Below, in pieces: positions 25,305-25,480 of a DNA stretch of 64,000 nucleotides. The notes beneath the pieces were generated by a model, which saw only the letters and a program-made list of their open reading frames with translations, ran no database searches and was not told the DNA's origin. The position numbers and the translations under genes were made by a program. Source of the stretch: Escherichia coli. GTDB taxonomy: Bacteria > Pseudomonadota > Gammaproteobacteria > Enterobacterales > Enterobacteriaceae. Where the stretch lies: the NCBI RefSeq assembly GCF_044324785.1, contig NZ_CP172127.1; one strand, written 5' to 3'. Positions within the stretch are counted from its first letter, which is position 1, and the number at the start of each line of letters is the position of its first letter.

Positions 25305-25480
25305 ACGCGCATAACCGTGGCAGCAGACCCGGACAGAACAAACGGCTCAGGACATTATCGGTAGGGGACGTACTGGTAGTATGGAAACTGAACCGACTGG
25401 GGCGCAGTATGCGACATCTTGCCGTGCTGTTGGAGGAGCTGTGAGAACGTGGTATTAACTTTCGTGCTCTGACTCTACCA
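25305..25480 (+). pseudogene. pinH: Decayed serine-recombinase (Pin/Hin/Gin-type DNA invertase) remnant, pinH-like
   Basis: Translates as …[48 protein letters not shown]…, matching the invertase catalytic core (GDTLVVWKLDRLGRS…ELRERGINFRSL) but with an in-frame TGA and a downstream frameshift; boundaries approximate. Confidence 0.75.

Follow-up and report, generated by a model that had tools for sequence, protein, structure and literature searches.

The 64,000-nt stretch of Escherichia coli DNA analyzed here (the window) carries, in order, glaH, ygaQ, the tRNA-Ile2 gene ileY (22679–22754), ypjCB (23505–24959), a fragment of a recombinase gene, the autotransporter gene ypjA, the tmRNA gene ssrA and smpB. 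ypjCB is a single 484-aa open reading frame with DUF5507 and DUF5508 domains, and ygaQ (19867–22119) is an intact 750-aa open reading frame of the alpha-amylase family, whose K-12 counterpart is annotated as a pseudogene. The stretch between 19.5 and 25 kb is AT-rich, with a GC fraction of 0.29–0.44. The features that bear on the recombinase fragment and its surroundings are collected in Table 1.

Table 1. Features of the interval between ypjCB and smpB, in window coordinates.
Feature	Position	Strand	Basis or remark
Right-end (ogr-side) attP arm of ssrA-integrating Fels-2/SopEPhi/500465-1-like P2-family phages	25077..25138		Alignments to phage records
Displaced 14-nt ssrA 3' end, TGGTGAGCTGGCGG	25139..25152	-	Compared with the true 3' end at 30620
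CP4-57-like distal terminus (the end next to psaA in K-12)	25153..25214		43/62 in register
IS3 remnant, internally deleted	25234..25325	+	Left inverted repeat (IRL) plus orfB piece; present in nine alleles
pinH, internal fragment of a PinE/Gin-type serine DNA-invertase gene	25324..25500	+	DNA profile, tblastn, pinE DNA alignment, Gin structure match, PF00239
AAC (Asn) in place of the conserved Asp of KLDRLGRS	25391..25393	+	D67 equivalent, gamma-delta numbering; 9/9 alleles
TGA nonsense codon at the site of Arg (CGC) in ELRERG of intact invertases	25442..25444	+	Translation, tblastn, allele alignment
4-nt deletion (frameshift) relative to all intact relatives, after CTGAC	25473..25474	+	DNA alignments; every E. 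coli allele examined
ypjA upstream region	25503..25861	+	89% identical to the ymgJ-ycgI locus beside minE
ypjA, adhesin-like autotransporter YpjA/EhaD	25891..30459	+	Right-hand neighbor of the fragment
ssrA, tmRNA gene	30620..30982	-	Directly after ypjA

A first-pass annotation had placed, between the 484-aa open reading frame and ypjA, a Pin/Hin-type invertase pseudogene disrupted by a nonsense codon and a frameshift. Homology searches agree with this on both identity and placement, the 484-aa frame being ypjCB. The check that had been proposed, tblastn with Pin/Hin/Gin proteins, was made with K-12 e14 PinE and returned significant similarity: amino acids 39–91 of PinE align to 25316–25474 with 40 of 53 residues identical (75%, E 4e-25), and it is at 25316 that the protein-level alignment begins. 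The frame from 25262 translates exactly as had been quoted, and the VVWKL(D)RLGRS and ERGINFR motifs are kept. The resolvase N-terminal domain (Pfam accession PF00239) scores 44.4–49.7 bits against a gathering cutoff of 23.3, with a match that covers only profile positions 43–103 of 145 and leaves positions 1–42 unmatched. Seven intact invertase genes (e14 pinE and those of a P2-like phage, Cartapus, SEN8, Fels-2, KP12 and 500465-1) were combined into an nhmmer DNA profile, which matches 25324–25500 at E 4e-39 and finds no second match elsewhere in the 64 kb. The fragment corresponds to nucleotides 123–303 of a gene of ~560 nt, or approximately amino acids 39/42–101 of ~185. The interval originally given, 25305–25480, is thus mostly correct, except that its first ~19 nt (25305–25323) derive from IS3 and that pin homology extends 20 nt beyond its end. 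A weak inverted match to invertase nucleotides 49–73 at 25680–25704 on the minus strand (20/25, E 0.2, in 3/3 alleles tested) falls inside the ypjA upstream unit and is probably due to chance. Judged from its sequence, the fragment belongs, as a gene remnant, to the Hin/Gin/Cin/Pin subfamily of serine recombinases.

The chief lesions of this remnant are two truncations, rather than the stop codon and the frameshift. Nucleotides 1–122 of the gene have no homology in the window, either in a shuffle test or in the DNA profile search with filters off. For the shuffle test, the first 123 nt plus 100 nt of upstream sequence from three invertase genes were aligned to 25100–25322, and similarity was at chance level, with 71–289 of 300 shuffles scoring as high. 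Homology likewise stops at nucleotide 303 (25500), and the 3' part of the gene is not found in the window with all profile filters off. The N-terminal ~38 amino acids, which include the region of the serine nucleophile (S9/S10 with Arg8), are missing, with IS3 sequence in that position; also missing are the C-terminal ~84 amino acids (approximately 102–185), which comprise the E-helix and the helix-turn-helix DNA-binding domain. Compared with PinE (e14), Gin (Mu) and the Fels-2/P2-like invertases, with which it shares 75% amino acid identity (over PinE 39–91) and 75–81% DNA identity, the fragment lacks amino acids 1–38, amino acids ~102–185, the crossover site at −78 to −53 and the adjacent tail-fiber segment.

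The smaller lesions vary in their distribution. The claim that TGA replaces the family arginine was borne out by tblastn with PinE, and the codon proves to be TGA only in the window and the WP8-S18 lineage; it reads TGC (Cys) in K-12 and six other alleles. The frame is indeed lost after the stop, through the 4 nt that are missing relative to all intact relatives, and homology resumes beyond 25473 in another frame (DSTNICPTMG versus DSIDTSTPMG) and continues to 25500. This frameshift is old, since it is common to every E. coli allele examined. A separate 4-nt deletion (TTCA), located between 25306 and 25307 inside the IS3 remnant, is private to the window. Alignment to gamma-delta resolvase indicates that the equivalents of R45, R68 and R71 are kept and that the equivalent of D67 is asparagine (KLNRLGRS), so the catalytic core that had been described as retained survives in its arginines, with the conserved aspartate replaced and the nucleophile region absent. 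Decay of the fragment is therefore greater than was first assumed: it is an internal piece amounting to one-third of a gene, not a near-intact gene killed by two point lesions.

The targets on which such an enzyme would act are missing as well. Eight intact relatives carry a 26-bp crossover site (TTCKCCYAAACC..GTTTAWGAAAA) 53–78 nt upstream of their ATG, and the consensus built from these eight has no match in the window at three or fewer mismatches. Half-sites and cores occur at chance frequency in the window, with none between 22 and 31 kb, and we found neither family-type inverted repeats flanking the fragment region nor an invertible segment. The suggestion to look for flanking gix/hix-like inverted sites thus yielded no full-site match in the window, and of the decayed site-specific recombination module that had been postulated, the invertase gene remnant stands and no crossover site or invertible segment is left. 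The sequence GTTTTTTTGATAT at 25228–25240 was considered as a hix half-site and rejected; it is the start of the IS3 left inverted repeat, and the formal site searches are negative. In Hin/Gin-type invertase genes, the Fis-bound recombinational enhancer sits in the 5' part of the gene. Because the 5' 122 nt are absent, a full Fis enhancer is unlikely at the fragment. There are no tail-fiber genes next to the fragment, unlike in every phage relative, and no sigma-70-like promoter was found upstream of it on the plus strand. None of the hallmarks of a functional Hin/Gin/Cin/Pin enzyme (nucleophile, intact DRLGR motif, DNA-binding domain and crossover sites) is in place. Since it has no serine nucleophile and no E-helix or helix-turn-helix, carries asparagine for aspartate and has no crossover site in the window, the fragment cannot recombine DNA.

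The 5' break of the fragment is formed by an insertion sequence that has itself been reduced to ~90 of ~1,260 nt. The IS3 left terminal inverted repeat at 25234–25251 (16/18 positions in the window and 18/18 in K-12) is joined through a TTACCC microhomology to an internal piece of IS3 orfB, approximately IS3 nucleotides 540–625 (~85 nt), that is 80% identical to IS3 in the window and 89% in K-12 (E 8e-16 to 5e-24). The orfB piece ends at ~25325, where it is fused straight to pin nucleotide ~123. When 25153–25323 is compared with E. coli genomes, it matches IS3 transposase genes (87% over 66 nt), and 66-nt matches to annotated IS3 copies occur in many genomes. We considered and rejected a reading of 25245–25300 as a degraded Pin N-terminus (through the strings IGLRCTT and LTDELRAQ, and VLRVTTSAHN in WP8), because the similarity is at shuffle level, the Pfam and DNA-profile alignments stop short of the stretch and the stretch aligns to IS3 orfB. 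In the records that we opened, the IS3 remnant carries no annotation, and the ORF that PGAP labels as a recombinase begins within it.

The fragment has a named counterpart in K-12. pinH (b2648), an annotated pseudogene of MG1655, lies among the same neighbors (ileY, ypjC/ypjB, pinH, ypjA) and is 90% identical to the window over 465 nt. In K-12 it spans NC_000913 2783065–2783304 on the minus strand, with an ORF of 79 aa. Like the window fragment, it is truncated at the same two points and carries the IS3 remnant, the 4-nt frameshift and the aspartate-to-asparagine change; the window fragment differs from it in having TGA for TGC and the private TTCA deletion. The K-12 locus also differs from the window in that ypjCB is split in two, as ypjC and ypjB, and in that CP4-57 is present between ypjA and ssrA. 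With flanks and break points both matching, the window fragment is the ortholog of K-12 pinH. We therefore conclude, with a probability of about 95%, that 25324–25500 represents pinH of E. coli, a pseudogene without function that comprises the internal third of a PinE/Gin-type invertase gene.

This finding was already known, in the sense that pinH is a named K-12 pseudogene and that NCBI's annotation pipeline marks it as an incomplete recombinase across thousands of E. coli genomes. The locus occurs in ~3,000 of 5,426 complete E. coli genomes (counting matches over at least 80% of the query length), and in every genome opened the RefSeq PGAP label is a recombinase family protein, incomplete, with the N-terminus and C-terminus missing. 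A scan of GTDB species-representative genomes with a pinH-specific 21-mer revealed no less-decayed ortholog and hit two contigs only, one assigned to Terrisporobacter mayombei (L024, 539 nt) and one to a Planococcaceae metagenome-assembled genome (L025, 2799 nt). These contigs are 90–93% identical to the E. coli locus, from ileY through pinH to the ypjA upstream region, with a coverage of 0.74 in one. Presumably both are E. coli contaminants of assemblies from unrelated Firmicutes. When the repaired fragment was searched against a protein database, the matches were limited to short ORFs of the same locus and truncated invertases, with no closer intact relative. The literature search for pinH returned only gene lists and one name collision. 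K-12 gene lists place pinH between ypjA and ypjB (PMC10652928), and the 'PinH' of an O157:H7 proteome is an intact 22-kDa invertase of prophage CP-933H (PMC3936929). The latter has only its name and its Pin-family membership in common with the ypjA-adjacent fragment, which O157:H7 carries separately.

In an alignment of nine alleles (window, WP8-S18, K-12, GF66.1, CUPS SST 5/1, 23CRST046, O121, O157:H7 and CB6886), all nine have the same two truncations, IS3 remnant, 4-nt frameshift and aspartate-to-asparagine change. Stop and indel states are polymorphic among them, and the variable sites between 25325 and 25473 number 8, 10 and 11 at codon positions 1, 2 and 3. Pairwise diversity is 0.079 in the pin fragment, compared with 0.035–0.099 in the adjacent scars, and with pinE as the outgroup 22 derived changes are shared, 7 are specific to the window and 5 are specific to K-12. 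This pattern fits an old pseudogene in neutral drift.

The same alleles bear on whether the locus might still encode a small IS3–Pin chimeric protein. The TTCA deletion brings the orfB frame of IS3 into register with that of pin, which creates a 56-aa ORF in the window; up to 92 aa would be encoded elsewhere. ORFs of 54–92 aa at the locus have been predicted and deposited as proteins; one database protein (P0006), found on 72 contigs, is exactly the 56-aa ORF of the window, and some E. coli alleles keep an uninterrupted ORF of 88–92 aa from which gene callers predict a protein. Targets for such a chimera exist in K-12, where active PinE, PinQ and PinR act on the e14 P segment (PMC12529663), and it might interfere with them, for example via dead heteromers. 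However, variable sites are spread evenly over codon positions, the start, stop and frame vary between lineages, and there is no promoter-like site upstream on the plus strand. The fragment also lacks the E-helix, through which serine recombinases mainly form their dimers and tetramers. We consider it very unlikely that a chimeric protein is still encoded, and just as unlikely that the chimeric ORF is expressed and modulates PinE, PinQ or PinR on the e14 tail-fiber segment; the present data give no sign of a role for pinH in inversion of the e14 P segment. Were the ORF expressed, Pin inversion of the e14 tail-fiber segment, recently tied to phage T2 resistance, would be affected.

The 3' break of the pinH fragment abuts the left edge of the ypjA unit (25503), which lies no more than 3 nt from where pin homology stops. 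Together with its 390-nt upstream region, ypjA behaves as one unit with a paralog elsewhere. That paralog is the ymgJ-ycgI locus beside minE (compared here through BL21 L016 3492–4203), which has the same left boundary and whose ycgI remnant is 96% identical to the ypjA 3' end at 30115–30469. From this alignment ycgI looks like a ypjA paralog minus nearly the whole gene (window 25862–30114). This paralog shares the left boundary of the ypjA unit and contains no invertase sequence, so the junction of ypjA with pin is secondary. On the other side, only ~160 nt (30460–30620) separate ypjA from the ssrA 3' end, and the 22-kb CP4-57 of K-12 is missing here. The spacer at 30460–30620 also precedes psaA in K-12.

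Secondary joining weighs directly on the idea that an invertase switch formerly governed phase variation of the adhesin gene ypjA, as Hin does for flagellin, and left the fragment behind. The position of the fragment, 390 nt upstream of ypjA and on the same strand, counts in favor of such a switch. The region is not flanked by family-type crossover sites or inverted repeats, though, the ypjA unit has a paralog at ymgJ-ycgI that comes without invertase sequence, and the close relatives of the fragment are all phage tail-fiber invertases. A former ypjA switch is accordingly a highly improbable reading, and with no nucleophile, DNA-binding domain or target sites the fragment should not be listed among candidate switches of ypjA.

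Upstream of the IS3 remnant, the interval preserves traces of integration at ssrA. The stretch 25077–25152 matches 33 phage records at 88–97% identity (including Fels-2, SopEPhi, RE2010, SEN8, Cartapus, 500465-1 and Klebsiella P2-like phages), and its first 62 nt, the attP arm, are 94–97% identical in Fels-2/SopEPhi-like phages. The Fels-2 record annotates the matching stretch as part of attP, the arm contains a terminator-like hairpin and T-run on the minus strand (25103–25130), and in prophage 500465-1 and strain 13P477T the same arm sits between ogr and an intact ssrA. The arm is followed by a copy of the last nucleotides of ssrA, whose real 3' end at 30620 reads TGGTGGAGCTGGCGG; the 14-nt copy aligns to 30620–30634 on the same strand with one deletion. 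A 76-nt megablast match to 'ssrA' (H110) had suggested a long ssrA duplication and was rejected, as 14 nt of it are ssrA and 62 nt are phage attP arm. The arm and the ssrA copy, which lie 5.5 kb from the real ssrA, are unannotated in the K-12 and RefSeq records opened.

Directly after the ssrA copy comes the CP4-57-like terminus, which is supported at E 3e-10 with the core included, by a binomial probability of 8e-10 and by 0 of 200,000 shuffles. We also considered 25153–25330 as the int-side arm of Fels-2, which would have made an intact attP, and rejected this for lack of any similarity. By the established Islander concept (PMC4383910), displaced tDNA fragments indicate where the far end of an integrated island lies, and what we find here is an ssrA 3'-end copy oriented as ssrA and flanked by an attP arm and a CP4-57-like terminus. 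Together, the arm and the ssrA copy are the relic of a prophage that formerly sat at the tmRNA gene. psaA (b4645) is a scar of the same type, likewise followed by a CP4-57-type terminus, but the window copy lies one island further from ssrA and is preceded by the Fels-2-like arm, not by the ypjA spacer.

The scars, stacked downstream of the tmRNA gene, lie in the order Fels-2-like attP arm, ssrA 3' end, CP4-57-like terminus, IS3 remnant, pin fragment and ypjA unit. Under the displaced-tDNA rule (PMC4383910), this series implies a sequence of events in which a Fels-2-like prophage would first have occupied ssrA, a CP4-57-family element would then have integrated into the regenerated ssrA end, IS3 would have entered and deletions would have taken out almost everything. 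In K-12, CP4-57 proper has since been gained between ypjA and ssrA. The scars between 25077 and 25503 may also be read as the trace of at least three successive insertions at ssrA, by a Fels-2-like phage, a CP4-57-like island and the ypjA unit, with their order preserved.

Which of these elements brought the invertase gene is a separate matter. In P2-like, Mu and e14-type phages, invertases of the PinE/Gin type flip tail-fiber segments. The close relatives of the fragment are without exception phage tail-fiber invertases, and its DNA-level matches (75–81%) are to phage invertase genes only. Sequence comparison alone names no donor within this group, because e14 pinE and the invertases of P2-like phages are about equally distant from the fragment (~75–81% DNA identity). 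The attP arm adds a positional clue, in that phages matching it (Fels-2, SEN8, Cartapus, 500465-1 and Klebsiella P2-like phages) also carry invertases that match the fragment, at 75–81% DNA identity. Since the same phages match both arm and fragment, a P2-family prophage at ssrA is the most economical donor. In Fels-2-like phages, invertase gene and att arm share a strand and the gene precedes the arm by ~8.3 kb; here it is the arm that comes first, 170 nt upstream of the fragment, and the CP4-57-like terminus intervenes. The fragment cannot simply belong to the prophage of the arm, because the order is not collinear and the CP4-57-like terminus follows the ssrA core. We infer at roughly even odds that the fragment derives from a P2-family (Fels-2-like) prophage at ssrA that was reduced by deletions. 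Descent from a transposon resolvase of the Tn3/gamma-delta type, with which the fragment shares PF00239, is scarcely tenable given the 75% identity to PinE, the DNA matches confined to phage invertase genes and a closest solved structure that is the Gin invertase of phage Mu (4m6f/3uj3, amino acids 38–101, E 2e-18), gamma-delta and Tn3 resolvases being far weaker matches (2.7e-5 and worse).

The pinH fragment is thus ordinary genomic debris and in itself matters little. The scar map in which it lies follows a known principle, to which it adds nothing new, and illustrates on a small scale the serial traffic and decay of islands at the tmRNA gene.
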